Shown here: in pieces, positions 17,789 through 35,403 of the stretch
Position numbering within the stretch: the stretch's first letter is position 1
Layout of the letters: each line of letters opens with the position of its first letter
Source of the DNA: a phage
Direction: 5' to 3' (one strand)
DNA length: 64,000 bases
NCBI GenBank assembly: GCA_028909515.1
Contig: GCA_028909515.1_4811.1
Position numbers and translations under genes: made by a program
The notes under the pieces: model-generated
What the model was told of the DNA's origin: nothing
The model's database searches: none
The model's input: the letters and a program-made list of their open reading frames with translations, nothing else

Positions 17789-18090
17789 ATAGCCGCGCCT
17801 TTATTAGTGTGATACGGATGATACGGATAAAATGAGGCGTATTTTTATCCGTATCGGTGTATAAGCCGCGCTATCACTGGTGTGCTACGGATGATACGGA
17901 TGATACGGATACTTTTCATATATAAGAGTTTATAAAAAAATAAAATTAAATTAGATATATAATTTTAAATTAATTTATTTGAATTCCTATATAGTACGGC
18001 GGCAACGCGTATCATCCGTATCATCCGTAAGATTCTTTTGAAAACAACAACTTACTTGATACGGATGATACGTCATTATACGTATAAAAC
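17789..18090. repeat. Iteron-like locus 1: 9 bp ACGGATGAT repeats in both orientations around an AT-rich core
   Basis: A ~40 bp unit ending in TACGGATGATACGGAT occurs twice as a direct repeat. A 9 bp-stem hairpin lies between the copies. An AT-rich core at 17913-17995 is followed by inverted copies GTATCATCCGTATCATCCG. Confidence 0.6.
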
Positions 18091-29989: not shown

Positions 29990-30009
29990 TGGGTGTTGGT
30001 TATTTAACC

Positions 30010-30038
30010 GTGAATCGTGGGTCGTGAATCTTGGGTCG
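30010..30038. repeat. Tandem direct repeat GTGAATC(G/T)TGGGTCG, two copies
   Basis: Read directly at the left edge of the island. Confidence 0.6.
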
Positions 30039-30253
30039 CTTAGTGCGGCCCTTTCTTTTGCCTGCCGTGCAGGAGTGTACTGCAAATTTACTGTGGGTAC
30101 AAAATAGTACGGTACTGTCTAGGATTTTTTCTTTGAAAAGTTAGTGGACCAAATGTGTCGTATTTTGATTAGTGTACTACAAATTTCATCAAGTACCAAA
30201 ACGCACCAAAAGACCCATGCCATAAAAACCACACGAACGCAATAATCAATCGC

Positions 30254-30338
30254 CGTTACAGTTTCCAGCGTTACAATTCGAAAGCGAATGATTCGAAGCA
30301 TAATAATATGAAGCATAATGATTCGAAAGCGAATGATT
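30254..30338. repeat. Nested direct repeats in non-coding DNA
   Basis: ATTCGAAAGCGAATGATT twice, GAAGCATAAT twice between them, CGTTACA twice just upstream. The 18-mer contains a 5 bp palindrome. Confidence 0.6.
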
Positions 30339-30463
30339 GCGTGTAGGATAATATCGGTGGGGATTATTCTAGATGCATGTAATTTCGCATGCGTACTATT
30401 TTCGGACGAAGGGTCGGCATATTCCTCGTTTTAGTTCGGAACGAAGGGAAAGTTTTGCGCCTT

Positions 30464-30537
30464 TATAAAACAACGACTTACGCGACCCTCCCTAACGGTC
30501 CGATATAGGTGTCTATATAAAACAACGACTTACGCGA
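30464..30537. repeat. Perfect 22 bp direct repeat TATAAAACAACGACTTACGCGA, two copies
   Basis: Copies at 30464-30485 and 30516-30537. Confidence 0.7.
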
Positions 30538-30662
30538 TGTTCTCCATTTAACGTAATACCCGTTATGCGAACTAAGGCGCATCTCGGCGAAGATTATGCG
30601 ACGACGAAGGGAAGGATAAAGGAGTTTTCGCGGAGAAGCGCATCGGGATAGGGACGAAGAAA

Positions 30663-30681
30663 AGCCGCGACTAAGCGCGGC
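30663..30681 (-). terminator. Weak terminator-like hairpin after small acidic gene A
   Basis: GCCGCG, 6 nt loop, CGCGGC, followed on the minus strand by TTTTCTTCG. Confidence 0.3.
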
Positions 30682-30701
30682 CTATTAGTAACGGAAGGGT
30701 A

Positions 30702-30992
30702 TTATAAGGAGACGATTTTAAAATAAGTTACTTCGCCGCCAAGTTGCGGGACCGCGATATATTCGCCGCCGATTTCGGTAATCGTATAGACGAAGCCGTT
30801 GATGGTTACGCGGTAGGATACTACGTCCTCGTCGCGATACTTGTAAAGGTCGAGGAAGTTGATCGGCTCATAAATAGACTCGATAGTCGCGTCTACGTTA
30901 GAGAGATAAACGCTCTCTAAGGTTTCGCCAAATACGTTAGAGTTTTCGGAAGTCTCGACGCGAGCGGAACGGATAGCGGATAAAGTAATCAT
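30702..30992 (-). CDS. Small acidic protein, paralog A of a three-member family
   Basis: 96 aa. AGGAG site. Blocks shared with B and C, for example SVYLSNVDATIE with EVYAANVDQTIE. Confidence 0.55.
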   Translation of the reverse strand: MITLSAIRSARVETSENSNVFGETLESVYLSNVDATIESIYEPINFLDLYKYRDEDVVSYRVTINGFVYTITEIGGEYIAVPQLGGEVTYFKIVSL

Positions 30993-31016
30993 AATATTCT
31001 CCTAGTTAGTCGGGAG

Positions 31017-31037
31017 GGTAGCGACCTATTCGCTACC
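31017..31037 (-). promoter_or_regulatory. Leader hairpin in the 5' UTR of gene A
   Basis: On the transcribed strand: GGTAGCG, loop AATAGGT, CGCTACC. Lies between the -10 element and the ribosome-binding site. Confidence 0.5.
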
Positions 31038-31058
31038 TCATCCCCTCTCGATATAAAC

Positions 31059-31088
31059 ATTATAGTCTTAGTGTACGAATAAGTAAAG
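31059..31088 (-). promoter_or_regulatory. Sigma70-like promoter of gene A
   Basis: Transcribed strand reads GTGCTTTACTT...TTCGTACACT...TATAAT then GTTTATATCGAGAGG. Shared with the promoters of B and C. Confidence 0.5.
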
Positions 31089-31097
31089 CACTTTTCG

Positions 31098-31399
31098 TTA
31101 TTCTGCGATAAAATATTTATAAGCTTTATCGCCTTCTATATCGAGATACTCGACGATAATTAACGCTTCGCCGCGCGGCGTAACGGTTTCGATGAGGGTT
31201 ACGGTTTCGTCGTCGGCCCGAATGAAGCGGATGGCGCTACGTTCGGCGTACTTAATCTCGTCGAAGGAAAGGCCGACGAAGGCGACCGCGCGGACTTTAA
31301 TTCCGCTCCACTCTAGTTCCGCGTTAACGGCTTTAAGAAGAGAAGCGACGGTTAAGCGGTCTTCGTCGTAAGTAAGAAGAGAAGAAATTAAAGTAGCCA
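31098..31399 (-). CDS. Small acidic protein, paralog C
   Basis: ATG MATLISSLL with a GGGAG site, chosen over the longer track ORF (31098-31457). Confidence 0.5.
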
Positions 31400-31457
31400 T
31401 AATAAAACTCCCGATGCTAGTAGAAGGAAGGGCCATCACCCGTCTCGATATAAACAA

Positions 31458-31485
31458 GTATACGCGAGTGTACGAAGAAGTAAAG
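31458..31485 (-). promoter_or_regulatory. Sigma70-like promoter of gene C
   Basis: Transcribed strand reads CTTTACTTCTTCGTACACT...TATACT then TGTTTATATCGAGACGG. Back to back with the promoter of B. Confidence 0.45.
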
Positions 31486-31528
31486 AAAAAAAGATAAAAT
31501 AATTTATCTCATTTTTATCGAAAAAGTG

Positions 31529-31557
31529 CTTTACTTTTTTCTACACTATATTATAAT
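31529..31557 (+). promoter_or_regulatory. Sigma70-like promoter of gene B
   Basis: GTGCTTTACTTTTTTCTACACT...TATAAT then GTACTCATATCGGGACGG. Confidence 0.5.
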
Positions 31558-31580
31558 GTACTCATATCGGGACGGGATGA

Positions 31581-31601
31581 GTTAACGAATAGGTCGTTAA
31601 C
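31581..31601 (+). promoter_or_regulatory. Leader hairpin in the 5' UTR of gene B
   Basis: GTTAACG, loop AATAGGT, CGTTAAC. Same loop as the gene A hairpin; two stem positions differ and both are compensated. Confidence 0.5.
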
Positions 31602-31625
31602 GCCTCTCCCAACTAGGAGTTTAAA

Positions 31626-31910
31626 ATGGCTATTCTTAACGTTTCTTCTATTCGCAACGCTATCGTCGAGAACTACGGCGTAAAACAAATTTTATCCGAA
31701 GTCTACGCCGCGAACGTAGACCAAACTATCGAGGCGGGTGGGGTAACGGTCGCCGAGGCTTTTAAACTTTACGCGGCGCTACCGGAATCGGACCGCGAAG
31801 CCTTCGAAGTAAACGTTAACGGATACTTCTTCGAAGCGGTCGAAATCGGTAACATCTTACTCGTTATGGGCGAAGAAGAATTTGAGACCTTCTCCCTCGT
31901 CGAAGCGTAA
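31626..31910 (+). CDS. Small acidic protein, paralog B
   Basis: 94 aa. AGGAG site. All 7 Leu codons are non-CTG and both Gln codons are CAA. Confidence 0.55.
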   Translation: MAILNVSSIRNAIVENYGVKQILSEVYAANVDQTIEAGGVTVAEAFKLYAALPESDREAFEVNVNGYFFEAVEIGNILLVMGEEEFETFSLVEA

Positions 31911-31990
31911 GAGAGGATTTTTAGAGCGTCGTGCGCGGCGCTTTAATAAAATTCTTTCGCGCCTAGCGCCCTAACAAATAGGAGTTTATT

Positions 31991-32617
31991 ATGGTTAGCT
32001 TAAATCGTTTCTCGACTAGCGGCGACGTTATCGCAACTAAGACCGCCGACCTCGTTGCATTTTATAATGCAAATTCCGGTTCGAAGCCGATTAAGAAATT
32101 TGCGGACCGCCGGACCGCCGAGACTCGCGTAATCGCGTTAATCGAGTCCTTAAACGCGCTCGATGAGCCGTCCAACGAATCGCCCATTCCCGACGCGAAG
32201 CCGCGCGAGGAAGTGTCCAGCGATGTAAAAACGCATAAGGCGCGCGCGGTCGTTAAAAAGGCCGAGCCGACCCAGGAAGAACTCGACGCGATGAGCGATG
32301 AAGAGTATGAAGCCTTCGTTAAGAGCGGCTTAAACGATAGTGCGAATTGCGTAGTGCAAAATGGAACTCCTTCCCATCGCCGTTCGAATAGCGAAGGTAT
32401 TGCAAAAAGTTGGGATAATAAGGAAGTGGCGCAAAAGCGTCTTACTCGTAACGGTGTTATGGTCGAGGGTGTAGGCGAGTTCAAATCGGTCCGCGTAGCG
32501 TTCGCCGCGCTGGGCTTACCGGATAGCAAGCATATTCGCTTCCGCATGAAGCTTAAAGAAGCTGGACGCTTAAACTTCGAGTTCGGCAACAAGTCCTACA
32601 CCTTCCAGATTATCTAA
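31991..32617 (+). CDS. Hypothetical protein with island-type codon usage
   Basis: 208 aa. AGGAG site. CpG-rich codons. Contains two copies of the ATAGTGC(A/G)AAT DNA motif in different reading frames. Confidence 0.5.
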   Translation: MVSLNRFSTSGDVIATKTADLVAFYNANSGSKPIKKFADRRTAETRVIALIESLNALDEPSNESPIPDAKPREEVSSDVKTHKARAVVKKAEPTQEELDAMSDEEYEAFVKSGLNDSANCVVQNGTPSHRRSNSEGIAKSWDNKEVAQKRLTRNGVMVEGVGEFKSVRVAFAALGLPDSKHIRFRMKLKEAGRLNFEFGNKSYTFQII

Positions 32618-33545
32618 TCGAATGGCGGCCCTTCGGGGTCGCTTTTCATAGTGCAAATTGGTGGATTATGAATACTCTTATTCTCATCGCTACGTTGTCC
32701 ATCGGAAGTGGTCGCACCTTATCCCTTTATGACCATAGTGCAAATTGCGCTTACCCTACGCGCGTTGCGGCGATAGTTAATAGTGCAAATAAGATGCTAT
32801 TCGAGACTTGCTGGCGGGTCGATAACGAGAAAGGTCGGGTAGTCTTAGGTTATAGTGCAAATCTGCTGGTGGAGTCGTTCGATTGGACGGCTGAAGGTCG
32901 TAAATTGTTACGTAAAGTGACTAAAAGATGACTTATAATAATACACTTTCTAACGCGTTTATGGTTGCAACCTTCCCCGTCGTATTACCGACGGCCCTAG
33001 AAGTGGAGAAAATGTGTTCTAGGGCCGTTTTATAGTGCAAATTGGCTAGTGGCGGGAGAATTGCTCGCCTTCTTTGGCCGCCTCTCCAAAATCCTTGTAG
33101 AAATCGTCCATAGAACGGCCCATTTTACTATTGCCGTTTTCATCAATCATCGTGATGCCGTAGATGATATTCAGTTCACGAATAGCATTAAGCTTGGCTG
33201 ACGCCGCGACTTCTGGATCACGCACAAGCTTGACCAAATTGTGAATTGCACCTTTTACGCTCCACAAATCCTTGAGTGGCATCTCTTCCATACGCTTTTT
33301 GAAGCGCATTTTGTAGTATGGGTTGCGTTGCGCGCAAAGGATTCGCTGGCCAGTGTAGTTATCCGTTGCAACTTCCATTCCAAATACTAGTGCAAAAGCT
33401 GCGCGCATGTCATGGCCCTGAATAACAAGGTCAATGAACTCATCGAATAAAGCCTGATTGTGCTCTGCAAATCGCGGGTCTTCAAAGTCTTCAGGCATCG
33501 CTACATAATCTTGACTCATAGTGCAAAATCCCATAGTGCAAATTA
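32336..33545 (+). repeat. Same-orientation array of an 11 bp motif, ATAGTGCAAAT, at least 8 copies
   Basis: Copies near 32336 (variant), 32351 (variant), 32648, 32735, 32780, 32852, 33032, 33518 (variant) and 33534. Present in coding and non-coding DNA and in different frames. Confidence 0.6.
33046..33534 (-). CDS. Hypothetical early protein
   Basis: 162 aa. The start region overlaps two copies of the 11 bp motif; an alternative ATG lies at 33519. Confidence 0.45.
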   Translation of the reverse strand: MGFCTMSQDYVAMPEDFEDPRFAEHNQALFDEFIDLVIQGHDMRAAFALVFGMEVATDNYTGQRILCAQRNPYYKMRFKKRMEEMPLKDLWSVKGAIHNLVKLVRDPEVAASAKLNAIRELNIIYGITMIDENGNSKMGRSMDDFYKDFGEAAKEGEQFSRH

Positions 33546-33744
33546 ATAGTGTGAATTATACAATGGATGGACATTATATTCAAGTGCAGATTGATGTTCA
33601 TTATGGCTATAAACGTACACAAATCATAGTGCTGATAGAGTTGCGGACCGTGGTGCGTGGTGTACTGTTTGATACGTATAAAAGAAATCCATCCCTTTCG
33701 CCGCTTGCTATGCAAATCAATGACTTAGCCGCTGCTGGCTGGTT

Positions 33745-34120
33745 GAAGCGTATCATGACGTATCATCCGTATTGCCGCAAGTCTTTGTTTTTACTTATAT
33801 CTTACGGATGATACGTATAAATATAAGTTTAGTATAAGTATGAGGATGTAGAAAAAAATTAATTTAAATTAATTCAAAATGGAGTTAATTAATTTTCTGG
33901 AATTCTATATATATTATGTTTGCACCCGTATCATCCGTATCAGCGTATTTTTCCTTATAAATCAATAGCCCAATGATACGTCATGATACGTATGAATGAC
34001 TGCCTTCGCGGCAAAACAATCCCAGTGTATACCAACAATCCCAGGCGCGGCGCACCACAGGGCCACGGTACAATATCCTGTGAAGAGGTGACTCTCATTT
34101 CCTTATACGTATCATCATGG
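33745..34120. repeat. Iteron-like locus 2: GATACG-type repeats in both orientations around an AT-rich core
   Basis: GTATCATCCGTAT, ACGGATGATACG and GATACGTCATGATACG flank an AT-rich stretch at 33840-33920. Homologous to the locus at 17789-18090. Confidence 0.55.
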
Positions 34121-34483
34121 ACTACGATTACTAAAACTAAAAACATTATTAAAATTCTGAGCACCAACACCACAAGCACCAAGACCCACGGCTAACGCAC
34201 CGTTAGCCAATACTCCACGATAAAATATCCTATAAATTACAAACAATCCGCGTATATAATAGCACCATAATTATTTATTTTTGATTCAATATTTACACTA
34301 AAATAAGCCATTGTATTTTCCTCACTGTTCTATCCGTATTATTTAGTGGATTAAACTGTCATAAATACTTATAAACGTTGATTGCCACAATATGCAATAA
34401 TCTTGATAAATTATTATAATATTTTCGCTCTCTTAAATTACAGCCTTGAATCGTAAATAACCACAAAAAGCCTCACATTACAC

Positions 34484-34514
34484 AGGCAAACAAAAAGGGC
34501 CAATCGGCCCTCTT
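34484..34514 (-). terminator. Rho-independent terminator at the end of the minus-strand early operon
   Basis: On the minus strand: GGGCC, 4 nt loop, GGCCC with extended pairing, then TTTTTGTTTG, directly after the stop of the 34529-34981 gene. Confidence 0.55.
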
Positions 34515-34528
34515 AACATTAATCATAA

Positions 34529-34981
34529 TTAAAATATAAAATTCTTCACTCCAAGCCTTTTGAATTCTTTCCTTAACATTATATTAAACTTCTTCAATTT
34601 AGTTTTATTCATCCTTAGCGGATTGTAGGTGAACACCTTTTCTATTACTTCCTTACGCATCTTTGAGCGCATATTAGTTAAGTAATAATTCTTGAACATA
34701 TTAATAAGGTGATTGGCTTCCAGCTTAAGCTCAATTACTTCTTCCGATTCATCAAGCTCAAGCAGTCCTTTTTGCGTAAGAATATCTCTTAATATATCCT
34801 GACATTTCTTGCAATCACCTTTGCCTAAAAGCGAGTCGATGTAATCGCCGCTGACGCGCTCATCACCGAAATAAGTTGCGCGACCACAAAGGCTTTGCAC
34901 TTCTCCTTCATCAAAGTAGTGCGCACGATGAGCCCACTTCGGTATGGCCCAACCAGCGGCGATAAGCTTTTTACCCATCAC
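34529..34981 (-). CDS. Hypothetical early protein with Cys-rich N-terminus
   Basis: 150 aa. CGR...CKKC zinc-binding-like motif. Lys-rich C-terminal half encoded by AT-rich DNA. Confidence 0.4.
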   Translation of the reverse strand: MMGKKLIAAGWAIPKWAHRAHYFDEGEVQSLCGRATYFGDERVSGDYIDSLLGKGDCKKCQDILRDILTQKGLLELDESEEVIELKLEANHLINMFKNYYLTNMRSKMRKEVIEKVFTYNPLRMNKTKLKKFNIMLRKEFKRLGVKNFIF

Positions 34982-35403
34982 CCCTCCTTAACAACCCGAT
35001 AAGCAATAATGTCGCTGCCTTTGAGTGCTCCTATATGACCCCAGTGAAGATGGTCAGAAAGTCTCGACAGTACTTTATCACCTCCATTGCGCAGCTTGTA
35101 TTCAACAATCTCGCCAGGCACCGGATTCTCGCCACCAAACCACACGGTCCACGCTTCCTCCTTCGGCGCATCATCATCCACGCCTATAGTGGCAACAACG
35201 TCGTGCAACTGCTTAACGAGCGCCCACGCATCACGGACCTGCGAGCGTAATGCAACCAACTCGCGTTGCGCTTCACCATATTTCGCTTCCAGCGCGGCAT
35301 AGTCCTCATATTCAACGTAGCCGCCTTCATCATCCTTTACAACTTCGCAGGTGCAAGCGTGCTGCGTGCAATAATCAACATCGTAACGTTGTATCATGAT
35401 CAA
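34978..35403 (-). CDS. Hypothetical early protein sharing a C-terminal domain with the 36803-37303 product
   Basis: 141 aa. C-terminus WTVWFGGENPVPGEIV...SDIIAYRVVKEG. Confidence 0.5.
   Translation of the reverse strand: MIMIQRYDVDYCTQHACTCEVVKDDEGGYVEYEDYAALEAKYGEAQRELVALRSQVRDAWALVKQLHDVVATIGVDDDAPKEEAWTVWFGGENPVPGEIVEYKLRNGGDKVLSRLSDHLHWGHIGALKGSDIIAYRVVKEG

Follow-up and report, generated by a model that had tools for sequence, protein, structure and literature searches.

What is signalled by a short DNA word that a virulent phage repeats thirteen times, always in the same direction, around its small terminase gene (terS)? The question is raised by a 64,000-nucleotide stretch of phage DNA (NCBI GenBank assembly GCA_028909515.1, contig GCA_028909515.1_4811.1; the whole stretch is called the window below), for which a sequence-only reading had proposed a one-orientation array of an 11-bp motif with at least eight irregularly spaced copies. 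Megablast of positions 31000-35000 retrieved 29 phage records at 93-96% identity, all from Wifcevirus or close relatives and including Bas99, Bas98, WFH, WFC, ECML-117 and Mansfield. The window thus belongs to Wifcevirus, among the PB1-like myoviruses of E. coli, and has a direct terminal repeat (DTR) of 3.7 kb. The Wifcevirus group consists of virulent myoviruses of E. coli and Shigella with genomes of 66-72 kb, which are distant kin of the Pseudomonas PB1-like phages (Pbunavirus). How phages with long DTRs recognize their DNA, define its ends and protect the end that enters first is poorly understood, and the array offers a concrete, conserved and easily mutated candidate signal. Our analysis shows that it is a real signal, most likely one for recognizing or handling the genome end near terS. 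It appears to be previously undescribed: the array is not mentioned in the descriptions of Wifcevirus, and a full-text search for the word returned only primers. As its reader we tentatively propose the small terminase (TerS), for which the array would be a pac-type recognition array that also acts as an operator on terS, a reading to which we give a probability of roughly 0.35.

One word in one orientation at the terS-proximal genome end

The word ATAGTGCAAAT occurs six times exactly in the window, always on the + strand (at 32648, 32735, 32780, 32852, 33032 and 33533), against a mean of 0.08 in shuffled sequence, and none of 100 shuffles reached six. Seven variant copies with one or two mismatches, also all on the + strand (32064, 32337, 32351, 33387, 33518, 33546 and 33626), bring the array to 13 copies between 32064 and 33636, slightly wider than the range first claimed. 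With two mismatches allowed, the loose pattern was found 31 times in the whole window where 27 are expected by chance, which is no excess; the signal is therefore the cluster itself. Indeed, the 8-mer TAGTGCAA occurs nine times, on the + strand only and confined to 32352-33534, and copies with at most one mismatch were absent outside the DTR in the window and in the complete genomes of Bas99 and Pantoea phage Kyle. In Bas99 (68,355 bp) such copies are confined to the homologous 1.5 kb on a single strand, and in Kyle the 9-mer T[TC]GCACTA is present nine times in each DTR copy and nowhere else. The sequence-only reading had taken a similar frequency of the motif across the whole genome as the outcome that would speak against a signal, and the count against shuffles instead placed the word at one locus. 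On the + strand the motif reads TAGTGC(A/G)AAT, and on the terS-sense strand its consensus is aATTTGCACTAt, one asymmetric block of 12 bp, about the reach of one DNA-binding domain. When the copies were aligned, no further information and no second conserved block was found within 30 bp on either side.

The array lies close to a physical end of the phage DNA. Record ends of relatives, mapped onto the window, place the DTR at 30128-33880. The terS-proximal end, at about 33880, was obtained at the same position from WFC and Mansfield, two independently determined left ends, and the opposite boundary falls at 30128 by WFC and at about 30208 by WFH and Mansfield. Terminal repeats of about 3.7 kb are reported for WFC and WFH, and the DTR of Mansfield is 3,673 bp as predicted by PhageTerm. 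Because the DTR ends map to the middle of the window, the window represents a circularly assembled genome that holds a single DTR copy. All copies are inside the DTR, 244-1816 bp from the physical end at 33880, with the outermost copy 244 bp away, and they cover the promoter, leader and body of terS as well as the converging genes of an 87-aa and a 208-aa protein. The array is adjoined by an AT-rich region (33.6-34.5 kb, 38-40% GC).

The terS gene is contained in a 162-aa open reading frame (ORF) on the - strand (33046-33534), which matched the small terminase of Pseudomonas phage E217 (PDB 7UXE) over residues 3-147 with E = 7e-34 in phmmer and whose homologue is annotated as small terminase in the Mansfield record; read from the second ATG, the gene encodes 157 aa (33046-33519). 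It is preceded by two overlapping sigma-70-like promoters on the - strand (TTGAAT-17-TATAAT and TGAACA-16-TATAAT, 33555-33600), and TATAAT stands at the same place in all seven lineages that were examined for it. Three tandem + strand copies (33518, 33533 and 33546, with spacings of 15 and 13 bp; 33518-33556) take up the whole terS leader between the -10 box and the start codon. The sequence-only reading had placed the motif over the start codon of this ORF, and copies indeed lie over both of its candidate ATGs. In two related lineages, L243 and L246, the leader has the same layout as in the window, in which TATAAT is followed after two bases by GCACTAT. The outermost weak copy, ATAGTGCTGAT (33626-33636), is upstream of the terS promoter and variable within the genus. 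Within terS, the variant CTAGTGCAAAA (33387-33397) is antisense to the gene, which reads F-A-L there, and L243 has a counterpart at this relative position. The exact copy at 33032-33042, by the 3' end of terS, is non-coding and located just past the terminator of the + strand operon.

The remaining copies are distributed over the two genes that converge on terS. The 87-aa gene contains three exact copies, at 32735-32745 (read H-S-A-N), at 32780-32790 (N-S-A-N, at a position kept across lineages) and at 32852-32862 (Y-S-A-N, with a Chi site 2 bp further on). An exact non-coding copy at 32648-32658, invariant in ten Wifcevirus genomes, follows the terminator of the 208-aa gene and precedes the ribosome-binding site of the 87-aa gene; the equivalent place in lineage L141 holds two copies. 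The 208-aa gene itself carries the weak variant ATAATGCAAAT (32064-32074), which varies among Wifcevirus genomes, together with ATAGTGCGAAT (32337-32347), located in the variable linker and read D-S-A-N, and GTAGTGCAAAA (32351-32361), which is in the other stop-free frame and read V-V-Q-N. The site at 32337 is exactly ATAGTGCAAAT in eight of nine other Wifcevirus genomes. The initial description of copies in non-coding DNA (32648, 33032 and 33533) and in two frames of the 208-aa gene (32337 and 32351) was thus accurate. The linker of the 208-aa protein holds two copies in Wifcevirus, both of which are replaced in ECML-117.

Conservation, turnover and codon choice

Loci of relatives were gathered via TerS from GenBank phages, a JGI metagenome and Logan/ENA assemblies. 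The same array was present in nine lineages, namely Wifcevirus, Pantoea phage Kyle, L141, L243, L244, L245, L246, L273 and L274, and the TerS proteins of the array-bearing lineages are 42-68% identical to that of the window. Between -400 and +2000 relative to the terS ATG, the GCACTA core was counted 94 times on the terS-sense strand and not once on the other strand, with 5.1 expected per strand. Each lineage has 7-14 copies over about 1.0-1.6 kb, and across the nine lineages the copies range from about -110 to about +1260 relative to the terS ATG, with one count giving limits of -113 and +1176. The spacing is irregular (10-464 bp, median 84), and no helical phasing of the copies was found.

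The copies turn over between lineages, being gained and lost at non-homologous places, so that only some of them are positionally homologous. Copies within genes are read in one or other of the two stop-free frames, as x-S-A-N or as I/V-V-Q. AGT-GCn encodes 18 of the 20 Ser-Ala pairs of the 87-aa family, and at the site corresponding to 32780 the codons AAT-AGT-GC(A/G) are kept in eight of the nine lineages, while the Myosmarvirus homologue is without this peptide. Moreover, only four of 99 alignment columns vary in the nine core copies of ten Wifcevirus genomes, compared with 365 of 1858 elsewhere (P = 1.6e-5). Near-invariant copies, turnover and codon choice together indicate that the DNA word itself is under selection, as are the number of its copies and the direction in which they point. 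The proposal that the array is a DNA-level signal is thus upheld by the strand bias, the single locus, the conservation in nine lineages, the copy turnover and the codon bias. An RNA-level role is unlikely because the copies are sense in one operon and antisense to terS; a search of 30000-35000 for known structured RNAs gave no Rfam match at E <=1. In L244, L246 and L274, the 87-aa homologue begins ATG-ATA-GTG-CAA-AT (M-I-V-Q-I), so that a copy overlaps the start codon.

The array was absent from Myosmarvirus (Hera and TropicalSun), Pbunavirus Pa193, Xanthomonas phage XcP1, Burkholderia phage Maja and the metagenomic lineages L268-L272, and in these motif-less clades no substitute repeated word rose above shuffled sequence except Chi. 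Pbunavirus packages by headful and has permuted genomes. In a TerS profile search, all nine motif-bearing lineages checked were among the proteins scoring at least 236 bits, whereas the three checked at 161-177 bits, and more distant ones, were without the motif. Scans of IMG/VR for paired copies revealed no array outside Wifcevirus among the matches listed, which were chance matches or coding repeats (Ser/Ala/Thr-rich, tail-fibre-like).

Candidate readers of the array

In the reading that we favor, the array would be a set of cis-acting, orientation-locked protein recognition sites that mark the terS-proximal part of the DTR. A ring-shaped TerS oligomer would bind the 12-bp word, first at the three tandem leader copies and then at the scattered downstream copies, and the resulting nucleoprotein complex would identify the phage DNA. 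With this complex in place, the large terminase would cut at the mature end, about 250-450 bp upstream, and packaging would proceed from there towards terS. Since the first copies separate the -10 box of terS from its ATG, TerS bound in the leader would also limit terS expression, as in autoregulation. Among the functions named by the sequence-only reading, a packaging site or a binding site for a phage protein fits best; its promoter proposal was not supported and its partition proposal is unlikely. With terS in its midst and the physical end 0.25-1.8 kb away, the array occurs at no other place in the genome. A single locus in each genome unit, adjoining terS and near the mature-end cut (33880), is what a pac site should have, and such uniqueness is equally expected of a cos or ori site. 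The placement is that of an operator in the window, L243 and L246, where a copy directly follows the terS -10 box, with tandem copies filling the leader, and the presence of the motif tracks a TerS subclade by the profile-search scores. Over-expression of TerS has been reported to harm E217 (PMC9611059). The closest precedents are the pac site of P22, an asymmetric 22-bp sequence inside terS (gene 3), and pacL/pacR of SPP1, whose TerS makes multiple contacts that flank the cut and lie on both sides of the terS start; as here, a unique cis-site is found around terS near the initial cut, and terS is, as proposed for this phage too, the first gene packaged (PMC9611059).

Several observations weigh against TerS as the reader. 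The array spans 1-1.6 kb with irregular, unphased spacing, and known pac sites are far more compact. In Myosmarvirus, whose TerS is homologous and whose DTR measures about 3.6 kb, the array is missing, and neither this genus nor Pbunavirus, XcP1, Maja or L268-L272 yielded another repeated word in its place. The homologous TerS of E217 showed no appreciable DNA binding in vitro (PMC9611059), and no TerS residue proved strictly diagnostic of the motif-bearing clade. In addition, Wifcevirus has a competing candidate for terminase recognition in the ATGATACG inverted repeats that are centered on the cut site. The restriction of the motif to one clade is accounted for just as well by plain ancestry.

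Compared with the pac sites of P22 and SPP1, the array is also different in its 7-14 copies of a 12-bp word over 1-1.6 kb on one side of the cut, in the fixed ends with a 3.7 kb direct repeat instead of permuted headful ends, and in the putative status of TerS binding. The SRL and SRR heptamer arrays of T7, said to have been described by Dunn and Studier in 1983, reportedly consist of short words by the terminal repeat with a suspected role in concatemer processing. They are similar in being many imperfect, irregularly spaced copies next to or in the terminal repeat of a phage with fixed ends, but they have another word, belong to another phage family and flank a 160-bp repeat, whereas the present array is inside a 3.7 kb repeat and runs over genes. 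In lambda, the R sites of cosB are repeated small-terminase sites beside the cut, and cosQ is a polar element read by the translocating terminase; there, however, three R sites of mixed orientation occupy about 120 bp together with IHF, and the phage described here has no cohesive ends. If the array is indeed read by TerS, it would be a specific DNA ligand for the E217/PB1-like TerS family, for which none had been found before, and would help in designing packaging-competent vectors or rebooted genomes. Members of the Wifcevirus group can now be grown on engineered E. coli K-12 (BASEL Bas98-101, PMC11990801).

The motif shares its locus with a second polar word. In seven of the nine lineages that bear the motif it is accompanied by an array of Chi (GCTGGTGG) within the same outer 1.6 kb of the terminal repeat, and over all nine lineages 42 Chi sites are on the same strand as TAGTGCAAAT and one is on the other, with 0.3 expected per strand. 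Kyle has nine Chi sites per DTR copy and six in the remaining 66 kb. The arrays cover 255-1972 in locus L003, 1625-3322 in L141, 323-1824 in L244 and 411-1836 in L246; further ones are in L273, L274, L005 (4737-5833), L006 (5487-5992) and L268. In four lineages one Chi site is located in the spacer of the terS promoter. The window retains a single intact Chi in its DTR (32865-32872, + strand), which has the polarity of the motif and begins two bases past a motif copy, together with five one-mismatch variants on the + strand and none on the - strand (sites and variants at 31734-33745). This set looks like a decayed array, and L243 is without any Chi site. In Kyle and L244, the tail of TerS (..HYPPA..) is encoded by GCACTAyCCACCAGC, a motif copy and a Chi site back to back (L003 801-817; L244 899-915).

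By the published orientation rule for active Chi (PMC12315714), these sites would be active for RecBCD that enters at the terS-proximal end (33880). Terminal Chi clusters occur in RecBCD-dependent lambdoid phages, and P1 needs RecA and RecBCD to recombine its terminal repeats (PMC12315714); the co-resident Chi arrays are a new instance of this known strategy and indicate that host RecBCD is engaged by these lytic myoviruses, always at the same end. The terS-proximal end is presumably exposed to RecBCD, in which case Chi in the outer half of the repeat would limit degradation and feed recombination with the other repeat copy. The motif and Chi arrays are alike in polarity, distance window from the end and irregular spacing, and the motif, like Chi, is biased so as to be read from the nearby DNA end. 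The Chi clusters of LLS, MD8 and P1 likewise consist of a short, asymmetric, irregularly spaced word in near-single orientation to a DNA end that is tolerated in genes (PMC12315714), although the word here is not Chi and is confined to about 1.5 kb instead of being enriched over a large part of the genome.

Two alternatives to TerS as the reader rank next. Possible, though doubtful, is that the copies are operator or roadblock sites for another phage DNA-binding protein, such as an early regulator or an end-coating protein, for which the 208-aa DTR protein is a candidate; binding would shut down terS and the early genes that converge on it, or form a coat over the terminal 1.5 kb. Copies at gene starts on both strands agree with this, after the terS -10 box and over the ATG in the window and L243, and upstream of or over the 87-aa start codon in the window, L141, L244, L246 and L274. 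The asymmetric 12-bp block would suit a monomeric helix-turn-helix domain, and the 208-aa gene is within the array, behind a promoter that is conserved in Kyle and L141. However, most copies are in ORFs and distant from promoters, regulators seldom need ten or more sites in one direction, and the 208-aa protein is also conserved in motif-less clades and has no DNA-binding domain recognized by Pfam or PDB searches. Rather less probable is a polar signal for an enzyme that travels from the terS-proximal end, either a Chi analogue for RecBCD or phage-modified RecBCD, or a cosQ-like element for the translocating terminase, whose chance of being recognized would be raised by many irregular copies. 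Such a signal would account for the absolute strand bias, the lack of helical phasing, the tolerance of copies anywhere including ORFs, and the polarity, end distance and irregular spacing shared with the Chi arrays (42 versus 1); moreover, the motif persists where Chi decayed, in Wifcevirus and L243. Against it, no enzyme is known to read the word, which matches Chi at only four of eight positions, Myosmarvirus and L268 keep their smaller Chi arrays without the motif, and the tandem triple in the terS leader resembles a binding site and not a stochastic signal. In a narrower and still less likely version, TAGTGC(A/G)AAT would be a polar control sequence in addition to Chi and distinct from it, read by an enzyme for which the terS-proximal end is the point of entry into the injected genome, be it RecBCD with phage-altered specificity or a phage helicase-nuclease. 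The word would then be the phage's own Chi-like password, by which the leading end would be protected and channelled into terminal-repeat recombination, beside the ancestral genuine Chi array and, in Wifcevirus, largely in its place. A word read by an end-entering nuclease would represent a new class of polar control sequence.

The other alternatives are less probable. Iterons of a replication origin in the terminal repeat, bound by a phage initiator such as the primase-helicase, are improbable. Iterons, as in lambda ori, P1 oriR and P4 ori/crr, are direct repeats at a unique locus and sometimes inside a gene, and origins within genes exist, for example lambda ori in gene O. The array does have direct repeats of one word at a unique locus with an AT-rich neighbor (33.6-34.5 kb), and a primase-helicase gene is directly upstream of terS in several relatives. 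Known iterons, however, are usually 17-22 bp long, spaced by about two helical turns and located by or in the initiator gene, whereas the copies here are 10-464 bp apart over terS and small early genes, not in tandem at about 20 bp and without an adjoining initiator gene. Replication genes are also conserved in motif-less clades, and in Wifcevirus the ATGATACG inverted repeats around an AT-rich center look more origin-like. Strand-specific nick sites in virion DNA, by analogy with T5, phiKMV-like phages and Pseudomonas phage tf, would agree with copies of a defined sequence on one strand of the terminal repeat, but known nick motifs are scattered along the genome and not confined to 1.5 kb, and no nickase gene was recognized in the annotations of Bas99 or Kyle; we consider this very unlikely. 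Least likely of all are promoter cores, put forward by the sequence-only reading as -10-like (C/T)ATAGT, whether for host RNA polymerase or for a phage-specific factor. TATAGT does resemble TATAAT, and two copies (32648 and 33032) stand after terminators and ahead of genes or antisense regions. The conserved bases, however, do not coincide with the sigma-70 positions: no more than 36 of 71 copies have A at the would-be -11, the preceding base is unconserved, and the conserved GCAAAT would occupy the discriminator and the start, a region that is unconserved in sigma-70 promoters. A match of four of six bases to the -10 box together with four of six to a -35 box was found in 3 of the 71 copies, where about 10% of random positions have such a -35 alone, and with the opposite strand read as a -35 box only two of the 71 qualified. 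A sigma-70 promoter was accordingly rejected in either orientation on -10 and on -35 or TG-extension matches. Furthermore, the operon and terS already have canonical promoters of their own, most copies are within ORFs or antisense to terS, and none is in the rest of the genome with the middle and late genes, where a phage-specific promoter class would be expected. Bipartite signals of the sigma-54 or MotA type were excluded, as the flanking 30 bp on each side contain no second conserved block. A partition centromere, also raised at the outset, is unlikely in a virulent phage with no ParA/ParB-type genes in the Bas99 or Kyle annotation. The sites of IHF, DnaA, Tus/Ter, CRP, PurR, an NtrC half-site, the marbox, RfaH ops, EcoKI and the Haemophilus uptake sequence share at most 4-7 scattered bases with the word.

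Neighboring genes and other repeats of the terminal region

The operon that converges on terS comprises genes of 94, 208, 87 and 35 aa. The first three are preceded by a sigma-70 promoter on the + strand (TTTACT-16-TATAAT, 31530-31557), and the same early promoter, TTTACT-N16-TATAAT, precedes the 208-aa homologue in Kyle and L141, where this homologue is the first gene. Terminators annotated in WFH map to about 32625-32642 and 32992-33027, and the copies at 32648 and 33032 come directly after them. The 208-aa protein (31991-32617, + strand), whose gene includes three motif copies, has two conserved domains separated by a variable acidic linker and is conserved throughout the PB1-like superfamily, in Wifcevirus as well as in Pbunavirus, Myosmarvirus and Xanthomonas phage XcP1. 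It had no Pfam match and no significant PDB match. A search with this protein returned near-identical copies by the hundreds on contigs of about 68 kb in public assemblies, some labelled E. coli or Salmonella, and the best 120 matches were all near-identical Wifcevirus copies; it thus seems that Wifcevirus genomes are often carried along in enterobacterial sequencing data. The 87-aa protein (32668-32931, + strand), whose gene also includes three copies, has a signal-peptide-like N-terminus. Among the DTR proteins there was no significant Pfam match, no PHROGs function and no defence or anti-defence family.

Three paralogous DTR proteins of about 95 aa are encoded at 31626-31910 (+), 31098-31457 (-) and 30702-30992 (-), the first two directly downstream of a TTTACT-N16/17-TATAAT promoter. 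They had no family matches, and a search of other lineages gave only an unconvincing 23-residue match to TropicalSun (E = 0.01). These paralogues may act early, in host takeover or against restriction.

A second motif, ATGATACG(TAT) / CGTATCATCCGTA, is present in inverted arrangement at 33668-34116. Its exact inverted arms measure 18 nt (33749/33973) and 13-14 nt, and the symmetry center at about 33870-33880 is also where the physical genome end, with its AT-rich palindromic core, is located. Another cluster of this motif, at 17818-18065, corresponds by coordinate mapping to an intergenic gap in the head-gene module of Bas99 (17.8-18.1 kb). The motif could be a terminase cut-site signal, an origin or a regulator site.

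In XcP1, four perfect tandem 11-bp repeats (CCCCAGAACAA; L007 2063-2107), which are unrelated to the motif, occupy a non-coding gap after the primase/helicase gene. At the other end of the DTR, just inside its boundary, AATGATT(C/G) repeats (within GCGAATGATT) lie at 30284-30340 of the window, and in Kyle the right end has four AATGATT/AATCATT copies less than 140 bp away (L137 8108-8229), so that this boundary of the repeat, inner or right, may carry a conserved signal.

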